Assembly: GCA_016839555.1 (NCBI GenBank)
Contig: JAEOUA010000006.1
Span: 256,001-320,000, forward strand
DNA: 64,000 bases
Direction of reading: 5' to 3'
Source of the DNA: Promethearchaeota archaeon
GTDB taxonomy: Archaea; Asgardarchaeota; Lokiarchaeia; Sigyniarchaeales; SOKP01
Shown here in pieces: positions 31,961 to 47,407 of the stretch (the stretch's first letter is position 1; each line of letters starts with the position of its first letter). Both the position numbers and the translations under genes were made by a program. Under the pieces are notes generated by a model that saw nothing but the letters and a program-made list of their open reading frames with translations, was not told the DNA's origin and did no database searches.

Positions 31961-32509
31961 TTAAATCTTACCTAAGCTTTTTAAGATACCTCTTGTAATC
32001 TCTTTAAAGATTTTTTCCACGTTTCTCCCGTCTTTTGCGCTAGTTTCATAATAAGAGAGTGAGCCTAATTCTTCTTTAAAAGCCTCTCCTTCTTGTTTGG
32101 ATACTTCTCGCTCCCCATTCTCAGCTAAGTCCAGCTTATTTCCTACTAAAACGCTTGTTTTTTCTCCGATTACTTTTTGAACTTCATTTTGCCAATTGGT
32201 TAGATTTTCAAAGGAGCTTCTTCGAGTTAAATCATGGACATAAATCAAACCAGTGGCACCACGATAAAAAGGAGGACGTACAAATGAGAAGTGTTTTTGA
32301 CCTGCTAAGTCCCACAATTGGAGTTTAATCTCGTAATTAGGATAATCCTTAAGCCTGACAGTTTTAGTTGAGAAGTTAGAACCAATAGTCATTATATAAT
32401 TGTCTTTGAACTTATTTTCACAATAACGCAAAACGAGCGATGTCTTCCCAACTCCACCATCTCCTAGAAGACATACTTTATATATGAAGCTTTTCTTCTC
32501 AGTGCTAAT
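31961..32509 (-). CDS. Rab-like small GTPase (182 aa; proposed ATT start at 32509)
   Basis: G1 GDGGVGKT lies upstream of the ORF-track start; TIGSNF, WDLAGQ, GNKLD, ETSAK; in-frame TAG immediately before the ATT. Confidence 0.9.
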   Translation of the reverse strand: MSTEKKSFIYKVCLLGDGGVGKTSLVLRYCENKFKDNYIMTIGSNFSTKTVRLKDYPNYEIKLQLWDLAGQKHFSFVRPPFYRGATGLIYVHDLTRRSSFENLTNWQNEVQKVIGEKTSVLVGNKLDLAENGEREVSKQEGEAFKEELGSLSYYETSAKDGRNVEKIFKEITRGILKSLGKI

Positions 32510-41161: not shown

Positions 41162-42352
41162 TTAAAGAAAAAGATTATGCATAACTTCTAAGACTTTACT
41201 TACTTGGGAATCATTAATTATCAAGGGAGGAAGTATTCTAATTATTGTTAGTCCGGCATTTAATAGGAAAACCTTCATTTCTTGTGCCTTTCTTATAAGA
41301 TCTTTAACTTTAATACGATATTCCACACCAATCATTAATCCTTTCCCTCTGACCTCACGAATTAATCTTTCTTCTTCGGCGAGTTGGTGTAAATTAGAGA
41401 GTATTTTCTTACCTTGCCTTGCGGCATTTTCTACAAGTTTTTCTTCTTTTATTATATCTAATACTGCGTTAGCGGCAGCACAGCCAAGCGGATTACCTCC
41501 GTATGTGGTATTATGTTCGCCAACCAACATTCTCTCAAATAATTCTTCCGATGATATCATTGCACCCATTGGAAACCCTCCTGCTATAGCTTTTGCTAAA
41601 CACATCGCATCAGGAATGATGCCATAATGTTCAAATCCAAACATTTTCCCGGTTCTCCCAAACCCTGTTTGAACTTCATCCACAACCAAAAGGATATCAT
41701 TTTCAGTACATAATTCTCTTAATTCTTTAACAAAGTCATATGGAGCAGGATAAACTCCTGCTTCTCCTTGAACTAATTCTATGAAAATGGCAATAGTATT
41801 TTTGTTAAGTAATTCTTTTACAGATTGTATATCCCCAAAAGATGCAAATTTAACGTTTTGAGTGAGCCAAGGAAGGAATGGTTTCCTATATTTCATATTA
41901 TGGGTCATAGCTAATGATCCTAGCGTACGACCGTGAAATGCACGTTTAAAAGCGATTATTTCTGGTTTTTTTTTATCCCTATTCGCGGCTAATGCTAATT
42001 TTATAGCGGCTTCAACGGCCTCTGTACCGCTATTTGAAAGGAAAGTCTGATTTAATGAGGGAGGTGTGATTTCTGCTAACCTTTTTAGAAGTTTATATCT
42101 CACATCAACTGGATAACTGGGCGAGATCATAACTAATTTTTCAAGCTGCTGTTTTACTGCTTCAATATACTTCGGGTGGCTGTGACCTATGTTGACAACC
42201 GCATGACCCGCCTCACAGTCAATGTATTCATTACCATTCTCATCATAGAGAAGTGCACCCTTTCCTCTTACTATCCTAACGTCTTTTTTTTGAAATAATT
42301 TTGAATGAAAATATTGTTCTGCAGAGATTAAATCAGGAAATTTTTTAGACAT
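41162..42352 (-). CDS. Class III PLP aminotransferase (ArgD/LysJ-like)
   Basis: NSGTEAVE, FHGRT, DEVQTGFGRTG, AKAIAGG, TYGGNP. Confidence 0.92.
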   Translation of the reverse strand: MSKKFPDLISAEQYFHSKLFQKKDVRIVRGKGALLYDENGNEYIDCEAGHAVVNIGHSHPKYIEAVKQQLEKLVMISPSYPVDVRYKLLKRLAEITPPSLNQTFLSNSGTEAVEAAIKLALAANRDKKKPEIIAFKRAFHGRTLGSLAMTHNMKYRKPFLPWLTQNVKFASFGDIQSVKELLNKNTIAIFIELVQGEAGVYPAPYDFVKELRELCTENDILLVVDEVQTGFGRTGKMFGFEHYGIIPDAMCLAKAIAGGFPMGAMISSEELFERMLVGEHNTTYGGNPLGCAAANAVLDIIKEEKLVENAARQGKKILSNLHQLAEEERLIREVRGKGLMIGVEYRIKVKDLIRKAQEMKVFLLNAGLTIIRILPPLIINDSQVSKVLEVMHNLFL

Positions 42353-42598
42353 AATTTAAGTTCTTTAGTTAGTAAATTATTCATAGATATATAGTTAAAA
42401 GTTTTAAATTAATTAATTCTTATGAGTTCATATTGGAGCTCTTTATGATACTATAGATGGTAAATAATAAAATAAAGTAATTAATAAAAAACTCTAAATA
42501 TCAACCAAAGAGTCAAAAAGATATAATTTTTTATGTTTATTGTATTTATTCAACTAAAAAATATAAGTTAATTCAATTTTTAAGGGAGAGAGAAATTT

Positions 42599-42982
42599 AT
42601 GAAATTGGATCATTTTGCTATTTCTTCAAATTCTGAGCAGGAAGCAGAGAATTTTTTTTCAAATCTATTAGGATTGGAAAAAACTAGATCCTTTTCTGTG
42701 CCTGCTGATTTAATGGAACAATTTTTTGGTATTAAAAAAGAGCAGAAAATCTTAAGGTTTGAAGGGAGTGATATTGCTGCAGAGGTGTTTATTAATAAAG
42801 AAAAAAGCAAAAATACTGATATTTTCACACATATTTGCTTAGTTATAGAAAATAGAGATGAATTAATACAAAACGCTAATAAAATGGGATTCCCAGTCAT
42901 AAAAGTCCCTCGAAAGAATGCAGATTCCTATTATTTGTTTTTAAAAGATTCTTTTGGCAATATTTATGAGATAAAAGAATAA
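42599..42982 (+). CDS. VOC/glyoxalase family protein
   Basis: LDHFAI, THICL, FLKDSFGNIYE. Confidence 0.85.
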   Translation: MKLDHFAISSNSEQEAENFFSNLLGLEKTRSFSVPADLMEQFFGIKKEQKILRFEGSDIAAEVFINKEKSKNTDIFTHICLVIENRDELIQNANKMGFPVIKVPRKNADSYYLFLKDSFGNIYEIKE

Positions 42983-43076
42983 GAATATATACGTATATTA
43001 CTATGTTTTTTTTAAAAACCTGTTTCATTACTTCTTAGAAAATATTTTCAAAAAATAGTTTAGAAGGTGAAAATAA

Positions 43077-43886
43077 ATTTCCCACTCGTTTAAATATAAA
43101 ATATTATTAGGTGGGATAAACGATCCAAAGAAATTTCCTATTTTCGCTGATTCTAAATTTGATAAAAATGATTTTTTTAATATTGGTATCTCTTTAAACT
43201 CCTTAGAATGCTACAGTAATTTTGGGGATTTATATTTATTCATTTTTTGGCATATTAACCTTAAAGAAGAGCGATTCAAATTTCTGATACCTTCATTCTT
43301 CGTCGGTTCCAAGGCTGCAATCTTATGTATAGATAAATCGAATTATGATTCTTTAGAACAAGTGAATCATTTCATAAAAATCATTAAAGAAAGAGAGGAG
43401 GATATTTCAATCTTTATTTTGAGCTTTCAATCGAAACAATCTTATAAAGAAGTCTTTGAACAAGATATATTAGATCTAATTGAAAAATACAATATTAGGA
43501 GATATTATTCAAATAAATTTGAAAATGAAAAAGAGAAATTGAACTATATACAAAAAAAGAAATTTTTTACATTTTTAATTAAAGAATTGAGTAGAAATAA
43601 AGAATGGCAAGATCGAAATCTTTCAATTATATTTCCTACAGAGGTAGAAGATTATCAAGAATTTAGAAATTCCTACAATATTTGTCCCATTTGTAAAAAT
43701 AAAAATCATCCTGAAAGTTTAAAAAATTTCTATTTCAGTAAACAACACGACCTAATGATCTTGCGAGATAAATTTTTAAAACTTCAAGAGATATTGAAAG
43801 ATAAGTTAAAAGATTTAAATATAAATCTTGGAATTCCATGCTGTAATTGTTATAAAATACTTCTTGGTAATAAGAAATCTACATAA
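43077..43886 (+). CDS. Rab-like pseudoGTPase fused to a C-terminal Zn finger (269 aa; proposed ATT start)
   Basis: Frame is open 95 codons upstream of the ORF-track start; degenerate Rab motifs; CPIC...CCNC; GGTGA 6 nt before ATT. Confidence 0.75.
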   Translation: MSHSFKYKILLGGINDPKKFPIFADSKFDKNDFFNIGISLNSLECYSNFGDLYLFIFWHINLKEERFKFLIPSFFVGSKAAILCIDKSNYDSLEQVNHFIKIIKEREEDISIFILSFQSKQSYKEVFEQDILDLIEKYNIRRYYSNKFENEKEKLNYIQKKKFFTFLIKELSRNKEWQDRNLSIIFPTEVEDYQEFRNSYNICPICKNKNHPESLKNFYFSKQHDLMILRDKFLKLQEILKDKLKDLNINLGIPCCNCYKILLGNKKST

Positions 43887-43921
43887 ATTTTTCTTATTAA
43901 AAATAATAAACTACTATAAGA

Positions 43922-44341
43922 TCATTTTTTAATTAGTTTAACTCCTTTTTTTAAGATCTTATAATGGTCAAACGCGTATTTTTTTGAGAATAATTCTTCA
44001 ATCGATATAATTTCTAAGGAGGCGGCATCATCTTTTGCGAGAGGTTTTTCTTTTTTAGTTGCCGGCTCGCATAAAAAAGCAATACTTACAGTATGCCCTC
44101 TTGGATCTCTTTCTGGATCGGAATATACTCCAATTAATTCTTTTATCTTTACCTTTATATTAGTTTCTTCTTTTGCTTCGCGTATACATGCTTGTTCAAC
44201 TGTTTCACCAATATCAACGAATCCTCCTGGAAGGGCTAATTGTCCCTGAAAGGGGGGGTTCTTTCTTCTTATAAGAACAATTTTAGAATTATATAAGATC
44301 ACTGCATCTACTGTTAAAAGGGGTGTCTCAGGTTTGCTCAA
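43922..44341 (-). CDS. NUDIX hydrolase (ADP-ribose pyrophosphatase-like)
   Basis: PGGFVDIGETVEQACIREAKEET, RDPRGH, AFDH. Confidence 0.92.
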   Translation of the reverse strand: MSKPETPLLTVDAVILYNSKIVLIRRKNPPFQGQLALPGGFVDIGETVEQACIREAKEETNIKVKIKELIGVYSDPERDPRGHTVSIAFLCEPATKKEKPLAKDDAASLEIISIEELFSKKYAFDHYKILKKGVKLIKK

Positions 44342-44449
44342 AGTAAAAGAATAGCTCGTAATTATTTTTTATAATTATATAATAATAAAAGAACCTAAAA
44401 ATTTAATACTCTATGAAATAATAAAATGAATCTTATAATTTTACTCAAA

Positions 44450-47407
44450 TTATGGTTTTATAACTTTCCTCTTAATATATGCCTTTATCTCCTTAAATTC
44501 TATGTCTTTTCTTCCGATAAATCCTTGCCCATAATAATTAGGACCGCCTCCTTTACCATCAAAATGTGTGACACTGTCCTTAATTAAATTTCCAAGATGT
44601 AATTTCGATTCTTTTTCAATTTTATTTCCCATCATACCCATTATTAGATATCCTTCATCTGTTTGGTTAATTAAGATACTTATTGCGTTTTCTGCTTTTT
44701 TTACGATATTTTGATTAATATTTTTCAGATCCTCTTGGGAAAGAGCATTAAAACTCTCAATTATTAACTTAAAATCGGGAAAAGATTCTGCTTTTGAAAT
44801 AAGCTTATTAATATAATCATCGCTAAGCAATTTTTTCATTCTATCTAATTTTTCTTTACCCTCAACCCATTCATAATAGAATTGTTTAACCTTTTTTAGG
44901 ATATTCTCCTTTTTAATATTTAAAAAGTCAGAAAGCTTAGATAAAATATCTCCTTTAAATTCTTCAGTAGAGTCTAAAAATAAATCTTTTTTATCAACCT
45001 CTCCTGTTGCTAATGCTTTATTTATATTTTTCCATTTTTCGAATAATTCTTTAACTCTTCCTACTATTTGAGATTTATCTACCTTTAAAAAAGATTCAAG
45101 CTTTTCAATAATTTCCTCATTTTTTTTGGCAATTTTCTTGGATGCTTTTCCTGCGGTAAATGTTAATCGTACCACGCCATCTTGAATTTTTTGGGACTTT
45201 AGAATATTTATGTAGCCTGCTTCAGAGGTATTATTCAGATGAGTCCCTCCACAGGCTTCTACTTCTATTCCAGGAATTTCTACAATCCGTATTTCAGTTC
45301 CTGGAACAGCGCCTCCTTGATAAATATTCATACCAAATTTTTGCTCCGCAACTGCTCGTGGCATGAAACTGAGATTCAAATCAATTTGTGCATTTACTAT
45401 TTTATTAGCTTTTTCTTCAATTTCTTCTAACTGTTTATTAGTGATTTGTTCATAATGCGTAATATCTAAATGGGAATTCTTAAGCGTTTTTTTTGCTCCA
45501 GCTTGATTCACATGATGTCCTAATACTTCTCGAGCTGCAGCATTAACGATATGGGTTGCAGTATGATGTTGAGATAATTGTTTTCTCCAATACTCATCCA
45601 CTTTAACAATTACAATATCACCCTCTTTAAAGTTTGGTTTCTCGTCTAGAACATGGATAACATAATTACCTTGTTTAAATGCATCGTTGAATTTTTGCCC
45701 ATTTATAGTTCCTACATCATGTAGCTGACCACCAGAAGTCGGATAAACTACAGATTTGTTTAAAATTACCTTAGAATCAAAAATTTTAAGAACTTTGGCT
45801 TTATTTTCCAATTTCGTGTAGTCATTATAATATAATGATTTTGTTTGAGGAATACCTTCTAAATTTAATTGTATTTCTTTTTCCGTAGTATATTGCTGTT
45901 CTTGTTGCTCATGACGTTGTACTACCAGATTATAAAAATTATCGGGAATTTTTATATTAAGATTATACTTCTTTGCCGCCTCTTTCACCATATCCGGACT
46001 AATTCCATTGGAATCATACATTTCAATTAATGTCTCTGTATCTATCTTGCCTGTTTTTAATTTCTTATCTAATATTTTTGCAGCTTTTTTCTTGGTTTTA
46101 TAATACTTTTCCCGTTCCACATCTAATATTTTTCGTATTTCATCTAAGTTTTCAGAAACTTCTGGAAATAATTCTTTTAATTCTTCCGCATGCCATTCGC
46201 ATACATCCGCCATATCAATAGCCCATCCGAATTTATCAAGAAAACCAATGGCTCGCCGAAAAATTACCCTTAAATTATAGCCTCCTCCTACATTTGAAGG
46301 AAGTTTTCCGTCATGTATAGCAAACAAAAGACTTCGGGCATGTTCTGCAACAGAATAGAGTCCTGTCATGGGCATAATAATATTTCGTAATCTTTCTACT
46401 TCAATATTTAATTCATTTGCAACCCGCTGCCATGCAGCATCCAAATTTTCTACCTCATCGGTATTTAAATACGCAGCATATTTCGAAAATTTATTATATA
46501 ATTCTAAATCTAATTTAATTTTTGTTATTTCTCGGAGTTTAGATAGGACGTAAGGAAATACCGCCTCATACATATTAGGAGTGCCTTGGGAGACCCACGC
46601 AACTCTCTCCTGGCCTAATCCCATATCCAACACTTTTAATTTTAATTCTTGAGGACCTTTTGGAGTTTGCTCAAACATGGTATAGACTTGGTTGAATAAC
46701 TCAACACCTCTACTGAAAAATTCGAGACTACATCCGAATGACCCCCCACCAGCCCATGAATCCTCATGAATAGTGATTTCATCTTTAGATAACCCCACAC
46801 CAATCGTAATAAAATCATGCATATCTAAAAAGAGCTGCCCTTGATCCCACTCTTCGGGGGGAACAAAGGTATGTTGCCCGATCATAACAAAACCTGAAGC
46901 ATGAGAGCCAGTTATACCTACATTTTCCACATCATTGAACCTCAAACAAAATTGTGGAATTAAGAGTTTTTTTGCTGGTGGCTCTTCTTCCCCAGTTATT
47001 ACATAGGGTTGGAATGCCGATATTGAGGCTATTGTGAATTCAGATGTAGGATTCCATCTCGCAACGCAAGGATAACGATTGATTGGAACATAACCTCTGG
47101 GTTCCAGGATTTCTACGATTTTTTTCCATACACCAATATATGATAATTTTTCTTTCGAGGGATTATCAATAACCACTTGAAATCCTCCAGAACACACCGG
47201 ATCACCGCAAAAATTTCTGTCTTTATGTGTGGTCCAAAAAAAAGTGCCGCAATGTTTACATTGTTTTCTCATATAGCCTAAACTCCTTAGTTCTTTCGTT
47301 GGAAAATATTGATCTGGATTTTTAGAGGCAATTTTTTTAAATTTTGTTTTCAATTGCTTATCTGTGCGACTATCTTTGAGTAATTCTATTTCATCTGCAG
47401 AGAGCAT
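44450..47407 (-). CDS. alaS: Alanine--tRNA ligase (archaeal type)
   Basis: N-terminal CKHC, VARW, WAGGG, DMGLGQER, editing HTATH and CGGTH, C-Ala GKGGG. Confidence 0.96.
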   Translation of the reverse strand: MLSADEIELLKDSRTDKQLKTKFKKIASKNPDQYFPTKELRSLGYMRKQCKHCGTFFWTTHKDRNFCGDPVCSGGFQVVIDNPSKEKLSYIGVWKKIVEILEPRGYVPINRYPCVARWNPTSEFTIASISAFQPYVITGEEEPPAKKLLIPQFCLRFNDVENVGITGSHASGFVMIGQHTFVPPEEWDQGQLFLDMHDFITIGVGLSKDEITIHEDSWAGGGSFGCSLEFFSRGVELFNQVYTMFEQTPKGPQELKLKVLDMGLGQERVAWVSQGTPNMYEAVFPYVLSKLREITKIKLDLELYNKFSKYAAYLNTDEVENLDAAWQRVANELNIEVERLRNIIMPMTGLYSVAEHARSLLFAIHDGKLPSNVGGGYNLRVIFRRAIGFLDKFGWAIDMADVCEWHAEELKELFPEVSENLDEIRKILDVEREKYYKTKKKAAKILDKKLKTGKIDTETLIEMYDSNGISPDMVKEAAKKYNLNIKIPDNFYNLVVQRHEQQEQQYTTEKEIQLNLEGIPQTKSLYYNDYTKLENKAKVLKIFDSKVILNKSVVYPTSGGQLHDVGTINGQKFNDAFKQGNYVIHVLDEKPNFKEGDIVIVKVDEYWRKQLSQHHTATHIVNAAAREVLGHHVNQAGAKKTLKNSHLDITHYEQITNKQLEEIEEKANKIVNAQIDLNLSFMPRAVAEQKFGMNIYQGGAVPGTEIRIVEIPGIEVEACGGTHLNNTSEAGYINILKSQKIQDGVVRLTFTAGKASKKIAKKNEEIIEKLESFLKVDKSQIVGRVKELFEKWKNINKALATGEVDKKDLFLDSTEEFKGDILSKLSDFLNIKKENILKKVKQFYYEWVEGKEKLDRMKKLLSDDYINKLISKAESFPDFKLIIESFNALSQEDLKNINQNIVKKAENAISILINQTDEGYLIMGMMGNKIEKESKLHLGNLIKDSVTHFDGKGGGPNYYGQGFIGRKDIEFKEIKAYIKRKVIKP

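Follow-up and report, generated by a model that had tools for sequence, protein, structure and literature searches.

Gene callers report, in a 64,000-nucleotide stretch of a Promethearchaeota contig that we refer to as the window, an open reading frame of 174 residues whose frame stays open for a further 95 codons upstream. This raises the question of whether the annotated frame is a gene, the relic of one, or the larger part of a gene whose beginning has been overlooked, and of what the longer product would be. The stop-to-stop frame 43077-43886 (+), closed by a TAA at 43884-43886, encodes 269 residues. It is one intact 269-codon gene, in agreement with the first-pass annotation, which had extended the 174-residue frame to a 269-residue product. 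Callers report 174 residues because the first ATG, GTG or TTG available to them is the GTG at 43362, the sole such codon among codons 1-110, and database entry P0002 is exactly this shortened product.

43077..43886, + strand: full coding sequence, 269 codons plus TAA stop
43362..43364, + strand: GTG at codon 96, an internal Val codon taken as the start by ORF and gene callers

When the 269-residue product was compared by phmmer with all PDB sequences, residues 23-140 aligned to Plasmodium falciparum Rab6 (E 2.8e-7), the alignment crossing the annotated start GTG 43362 without a break, and Rab and Ran chains by the dozen lay below 1e-3. Judged by such comparisons, the upstream 95 codons exceed chance, and the annotated 174-residue ORF from GTG 43362 is a gene-calling artefact.

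Fold and G motifs of the 269-residue product

The fold was predicted with AlphaFold2 from a 30-sequence family alignment. In the resulting model (mean pLDDT 85.6, pTM 0.79) the G domain runs b1-a1-b2-b3-a2-b4-a3-b5-a4-b6-a5; this small-GTPase order of strands and helices spans residues 1-171, beyond which the chain forms a helical C-terminal domain. Foldseek matched the model to Ran, Rab8, Rab6, Rab11, Rab35 and Ras in the PDB with probability 1.0 and TM-scores by target of 0.6-0.75. The Rab-type fold suspected from the letters alone was thus returned with confidence. A product begun at codon 96 would, according to the model, be without strands b1-b4. In Pfam the window protein stays under the gathering cut-offs for both Ras (PF00071, 17.5 against 21.6) and Roc (PF08477, 20.9 against 27); both families are found in the orthologue P0006. 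Prediction of a homodimer from two copies (alignment A1) gave a score of 0.00, which has no bearing either way.

43077..43571, + strand: Rab/Ras-like G-domain fold without G motifs, residues 1-165 (AlphaFold2, Foldseek, phmmer)
43110..43139, + strand: G1/P-loop remnant, residues 12-21, with the Gly of GK[ST] and the Ser/Thr replaced
43248..43259, + strand: G3 remnant, residues 58-61, with Trp-His for Trp-Asp and without DxxG
43425..43436, + strand: G4 remnant, residues 117-120, in place of [NT]KxD

We then compared the G motifs, using an alignment of the window protein to three canonical Rab-likes that its genome also encodes, together with the family alignments. In the window protein they read as follows.

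G1, canonical GxxxxGK[ST]: lost
G2, canonical switch-I Thr: lost, with Asn at the aligned position
G3, canonical DxxGQ: lost, with Trp-His-Ile-Asn for Trp-Asp-x-x-Gly
G4, canonical [NT]KxD: lost
G5, canonical SAK: lost

The alignment with the same-genome Rab-like proteins bears out that G1, G3 and G4 are destroyed, as had been claimed, and adds that the G2 Thr and G5 are gone too. A G fold has therefore been kept and its nucleotide-binding motifs lost, as expected of a class-i pseudoGTPase, the class without nucleotide binding. The window protein is accordingly predicted, from its sequence, to belong to this class and to neither bind GTP nor switch.

It may be asked whether non-canonical residues still allow the protein to bind GTP, ATP or another ligand, as a class-ii or class-iii pseudoGTPase or by way of a re-purposed pocket, and to switch. 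A Lys is kept at the position of the P-loop Lys in the window protein and its nearest relative, and the members that lack the motifs share a conserved Pro-Phe-Phe-type motif in place of GK[ST], which suggests a pocket region that is constrained and not drifting. The Lys, however, is unconserved in other members of that clade. Moreover, the P-loop Gly and Ser/Thr are lost together with the G3 Asp, a Mg/water ligand, and so are the Asn/Thr-Lys-x-Asp of G4, which confers guanine specificity, and G5. We therefore consider continued nucleotide binding unlikely.

Two groups of known proteins invite comparison with the nucleotide-independent protein that we favor. The Asgard Rab-likes (Thor-Rab, PDB 7EZB; the MK-D1 set of 74; Surkont & Pereira-Leal 2016, PMC4915359; Tran et al. 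2024, PMC10933270) have the Ras-superfamily G fold and the phylum in common with the window protein, which in sequence and fold matches Rab6, Rab8 and Ran best and whose genome also encodes canonical Rab-like paralogues. In contrast to them, it is without all five G motifs, its helix a1 is 3 residues shorter, and it adds a C-terminal extension of roughly 100 residues with a Cys/His domain. The eukaryotic class-i pseudoGTPases CENP-M, p190RhoGAP pG1/pG2 (PMC5593906) and AAGAB psGD (PMC12490416) resemble it in having kept the fold, lost the motifs and been conserved; they are presumed to act through protein-protein contacts, and the same is presumed here. Unlike them, the window protein is archaeal and homologous only at the superfamily level, and P-loop-bearing orthologues are extant at its locus, so that the conversion can be dated on a tree.

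The Cys/His tail

Beyond the G domain lies a small domain rich in conserved cysteines.

43647..43883, + strand: helical Cys/His domain, a putative zinc tail, residues about 191-269 (alignment A2, AlphaFold2)
43683..43709, + strand: first knuckle, Cys-Pro-Ile-Cys and then Asn-His, residues 203-211, with CxxC at 43683-43694
43839..43850, + strand: second knuckle, formed by residues 255-258 (Cys-Cys-x-Cys) where the last helix begins

The CPIC and CCNC motifs noted at the C-terminus by the first-pass annotation are thus present, as CxxC at 43683-43694 and CCxC at 43839-43850, and their cysteines (Cys203, Cys206, Cys255, Cys256 and Cys258) are invariant in 30/30 family members. In the same 30-member alignment His211 never varies and Asn210 is conserved to 90% or more; both reach at least 90% in the 24-sequence alignment of the tail (A2), giving an invariant Cys, Pro, Cys ... 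Gly, Cys, Cys, Cys with a near-invariant Asn-His. About 45 mostly helical residues separate the knuckles, after which Gly-Ile-Pro-Cys-Cys-x-Cys opens an aromatic and basic last helix. The tail therefore holds two conserved pairs of Cys/His ligands, as expected of a zinc finger, and its core is modeled with a pLDDT of about 90. Most likely, on the pattern of conserved residues, it is a structural zinc site.

No described zinc-finger family gave a significant sequence or fold match to the tail in Pfam, Foldseek, VIA or the Atlas. Pfam holds no family for the domain and the Atlas no matching feature; Foldseek against the PDB returned E-values of at least 2.8, and the best Z of the wide VIA search, 4.4, is within noise. 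A shape search of the Atlas gave weak matches to DksA/TraR and HNH, with a TM-score of about 0.35. These failed searches are no proof that the fold is new. As in a treble-clef or zinc-ribbon (the C4 finger of DksA/TraR), a Cys-x2-Cys hairpin knuckle is combined with a Cys pair at a helix N-terminus; the tail differs in the approximately 45 helical residues between its knuckles, an extra invariant Cys and the Asn-His.

Across Asgard archaea the tail is attached almost only to Ras/Roc G domains; apart from the pseudoGTPase, the G domains in front of it are of the Ras, Roc or Arf type, mostly P-loop-bearing and joined to it by longer linkers. Examples of the tail behind other G domains are the 361-residue L013 and L014, from the same genome, and representatives of 350-455 residues; N-termini other than G domains are rare. 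One of the few architectures without a GTPase is P0154 (204 residues), in which the tail stands behind a short CarD/TRCF RID-like match. The domain is also found in Hod-, Hermod- and Thorarchaeota MAGs.

Could the cysteines serve as a lipidation site or membrane anchor, instead of or beside a zinc site, in the manner of the Rab/Ras hypervariable tail? In the family, 6-12 residues separate the Cys-Cys-x-Cys from the C-terminus, a helix of the Tyr/Phe-Lys-Lys type comes after it, and the tail rides almost only on small GTPases, in a group of proteins, the archaeal Rab-likes, that published surveys report to be without C-terminal extensions, cysteines or polybasic tails (PMC4915359; PMC10933270). 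Against an anchor, the cysteines form one invariant group with the distant Cys-x2-Cys and Asn-His, and such joint invariance of Cys pairs far apart in the chain speaks for a metal site, not for a lipidated tail. The AlphaFold2 model also packs the tail cysteines together in a compact domain. The window protein has no prenylatable Cys at its extreme C-terminus, its Cys-Cys-x-Cys being 11 residues from the end, and prenylation machinery of the REP/RabGGTase type has been reported absent in Asgard archaea, where no Rab prenylation machinery is known (PMC10933270). A lipid anchor is therefore rather improbable.

Probable initiation at ATT and conservation of the frame

The sequence around the beginning of the frame has the following features.

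43066..43070, + strand: Shine-Dalgarno-like GGTGA, 6 nt upstream of the ATT, with the same context in a syntenic relative
43074..43076, + strand: in-frame TAA that closes the frame upstream, so that no canonical upstream start is possible
43077..43079, + strand: ATT, the putative initiation codon, in alignment with the starts of 13 relatives (ATG or TTG)

For the comparison of starts, 26 family members were lined up at the codon that precedes the first beta strand by four positions. The codons at this homologous start position include:

ATG: 10 members (of 26)
TTG: 3 members (of 26)
ATT: 6 members, the window gene included (of 26)
ATC: 1 member (of 26)
CTG: 1 member (of 26)

ATT, ATC or CTG thus occupies the position in 8/26 members, the window counted, and each of these carries GGTGA or GGAG 4-8 nt upstream. 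Five of the non-canonical cases, namely four of the ATT genes and the CTG one, are cut off by an in-frame stop from any canonical codon further upstream. The window gene combines a Shine-Dalgarno-like motif at a distance of 5-8 nt, the lack of a canonical alternative and a conserved position. A search of the whole genome for GGTGA followed, after 5-7 nt, by an ATT heading an open frame of at least 100 codons gave 14 occurrences, against 2 in a control with a spacing of 12-14 and 1 in a control with a scrambled motif. The same test yielded 16 for TTG, 30 for ATG and 5 for ATA.

Initiation at AUU has its textbook example in E. coli infC, and NCBI table 11 lists ATT as a start. Like infC, the window gene has an SD-like motif at canonical spacing, an ATT and no alternative canonical start; it differs from infC in that such putative starts recur, both within a single archaeal lineage and among the members of a gene family. 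Taken together, the sequence comparisons indicate that translation most likely starts at ATT 43077. The pseudoGTPase gene would then be hidden from callers because of an ATT start behind GGTGA, and not because of decay. Its description as invisible to normal annotation holds in the window lineage only: elsewhere ATG-start orthologues are called at full length, one of them being labeled 'GTPase SAR1 family protein' by JGI.

Several other genes show related 5' ends. GGTGA-N6-ATT also heads a canonical Rab-like gene at 31961-32509 (-), 11 kb from the pseudoGTPase gene, to which no other observation ties it. This Rab-like GTPase has all G motifs intact, is without a canonical start and begins at ATT 32509; an in-frame TAG is found inside the spacer between the GGTGA and this ATT. 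Genome G009 carries two tandem family members, both with a P-loop (L012:622-1383 (-) and L012:1501-2286 (-)), one of which starts with ATG and the other with an ATT behind TGGTGA, the TGA of the motif being in frame. In genome G007, a P-loop-bearing orthologue (L010:2251-2275 (-)) has a 5' end that reads ATG-TCT-TAA-CTG; the CTG, 8 nt after GGAGGA, is the only codon at the homologous start position, which suggests either CTG initiation or a very recent nonsense change. Eleven family representatives (P0022, P0042, P0046, P0049, P0066, P0069, P0071, P0072, P0076, P0080 and P0097) begin 30-100 profile positions into the G domain; these may be N-terminal truncations from non-canonical starts, or contig ends.

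We used a six-frame search of 40 related genomes to follow the window protein beyond its own contig. Most genera of the same family yielded matches over the full length (query residues about 2-265), with open frames between 256 and 289 codons long. The closest relative, with 80% amino acid identity, was found in three independent metagenome assemblies. Its gene order is the same (aminotransferase, glyoxalase-like, pseudoGTPase gene, NUDIX), its frame is likewise of 269 codons, and its upstream context is identical through GGTGA, TAA and ATT. Between the window gene and this relative, the dN/dS ratio (Nei-Gojobori) is 0.067 over codons 1-95 (dS 0.81) and 0.23 over codons 96-269; consequently, the 'hidden' 95 codons are the more constrained part. 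The G domain of another motif-less pair gave an omega of 0.28 (dS about 1); values of 0.13 for a third motif-less pair and 0.14 for a P-loop-bearing pair are less reliable, their dS being near saturation.

A decaying pseudogene, with codons 1-95 an untranslated relic and either the 174-residue GTG product or nothing being made, would account for several of these observations: no ATG, GTG or TTG precedes codon 96, all G motifs are destroyed, and callers report products of 174 residues in the window and 168 in the closest relative. Decay, however, does not leave a dN/dS of 0.067 over exactly these 95 codons at a dS of 0.81, nor would it spare the N-terminal frames of the 10 motif-less members, from at least 3 genera, in which no stop or frameshift was found. 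The first-pass annotation had named stops or frameshifts in the extension of orthologues as grounds for refutation; instead, all 10 are open, with the dN/dS of 0.07 noted. The internal starts, furthermore, differ between the two closest genomes: GTG 43362 is GTA in the relative, where the caller picked another internal ATG at codon 102, and neither has an SD upstream. As the true start the GTG was rejected, on the upstream dN/dS of 0.067 and the unconserved, SD-less internal starts. A 174-residue product would moreover be without b1-b4, and SD-led ATT codons are seen again elsewhere in the family and the genome. By these comparative measures the gene is retained under purifying selection and is not a decaying pseudogene, a reading that we hold to be highly improbable. 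A true start at the out-of-frame GTG 43067, the frame having been broken by an indel of 1 nt among the A/T/C runs at 43070-43085, has next to no likelihood: the region is homopolymer-rich and in the same-genus orthologue L006 the GTG inside the SD is in frame, but the identical GGTGAAAATAA-ATT arrangement in three independent assemblies of the relative argues against an assembly error, L006 and four further members also have ATT at this codon, and GTG 43067 overlaps the SD itself.

Descent in place and proposed role

In a maximum-likelihood tree, all motif-less members form one clade with support 100/95. This clade (n=10: the window gene, its relative, P0003, P0004, L002-L006 and L008, from genera g1, g3 and g12) arises from within a set of members in which the P-loop and the G3 Asp are preserved and, in most, [NT]KxD as well. 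Glyoxalase-like and NUDIX flanks, often with the aminotransferase and AlaRS, are common to the motif-less members and to the P-loop-bearing L007, L009-L011, L022, L023, L025 and L026, and, since the flanking genes are the same, the two forms are positional orthologues. The P-loop-bearing orthologues share the locus, the length and the Cys/His tail of the window gene at 30-37% identity; GxxxxGK[ST] and the Trp-Asp of G3 are preserved in them, and [NT]KxD in most, in contrast to the window clade, which has none of these. From a single nested clade at a shared locus it follows that a GTPase was converted in place and the motif-less form then retained. The window gene thus descends in place from a P-loop-bearing GTPase that is still present at the locus in sister genera. 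Even the 'intact' orthologues are without the G2 Thr and the G3 Gly-Gln; the ancestor may already have been an atypical switch, in which case the functional change would be smaller than 'switch to scaffold' implies.

The family is small, with 115 representatives at E below 1e-30, and its named genomes are Promethearchaeota MAGs. Across the wider family, represented at 50% identity, the G motifs are degenerate in a mosaic fashion in many lineages and the Cys pattern is almost invariant. One representative, P0011, has lost G1 and G4, its G4 region resembling that of the window clade, and has kept the Trp-Asp of G3; it is a possible evolutionary intermediate.

The gene order around the locus (window 41162-47407; loci L002-L011 and L022-L026) is conserved in at least 10 genera of the family and runs aminotransferase (class III), glyoxalase-like, pseudoGTPase or GTPase gene, NUDIX hydrolase, alanyl-tRNA synthetase. 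A functional link to these neighbors was considered and rejected: the genes are functionally unrelated and the taxa close, and we read the arrangement as inherited gene order, drawing on it for orthology alone.

How might such a protein work? GGTGA, 6 nt upstream, would position the ribosome at the near-cognate ATT 43077. Residues 1-165 would fold as a Rab/Ras-type G domain that neither binds nucleotide nor switches, and the small helical tail would be held together by structural zinc through Cys-x2-Cys (plus Asn-His) and Cys-Cys-x-Cys. The frozen surface of the G fold, in which the interswitch and switch-II region is still conserved, could then bind a partner, and the tail could dock the pseudoGTPase at the site or hub used by the nucleotide-binding members of the family. 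A role as scaffold or nucleotide-independent adaptor is what we infer from this arrangement. As a whole, we find it likely that the locus holds a functional ATT-initiated gene for such an adaptor, composed of a motif-less G fold and a zinc-type tail.

A further-reaching proposal is that the tail is the Asgard counterpart of the hypervariable tail of eukaryotic small GTPases and brings many G domains to one site, where the motif-less orthologue, evolved in place, would be a constitutive, nucleotide-blind occupant acting as a decoy or permanent adaptor. We regard this as doubtful, if conceivable.

Both pseudoGTPases and Asgard Rab-like GTPases are already known; an Asgard pseudoGTPase derived in place and carrying a Cys/His tail was not found published. 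Our literature search returned no account of Asgard pseudoGTPases or of the Cys/His tail, and 'pseudoGTPase' and 'archaea' occurred together only in general reviews.

Interest in Asgard archaea comes from their position as the closest relatives of eukaryotes, and the large sets of small GTPases that they encode are taken as hints of proto-eukaryotic trafficking or signaling. The present locus indicates that catalogues of these GTPases are wrong in both directions: ATT-start members are truncated or missed, and motif-less members that start with ATG are labeled GTPases. Callers limited to ATG, GTG and TTG will truncate ATT-start genes. Since one locus carries the P-loop form in some genera and a retained motif-less form in others, it constitutes a natural experiment suited to matched biochemistry. 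The tail family is an exception to the surveys of archaeal Rab-likes, which makes it a candidate targeting module. Should its kinship in role with the hypervariable tail prove true, both the conversion of a GTPase into a pseudoGTPase and tail-mediated targeting would predate eukaryotes.
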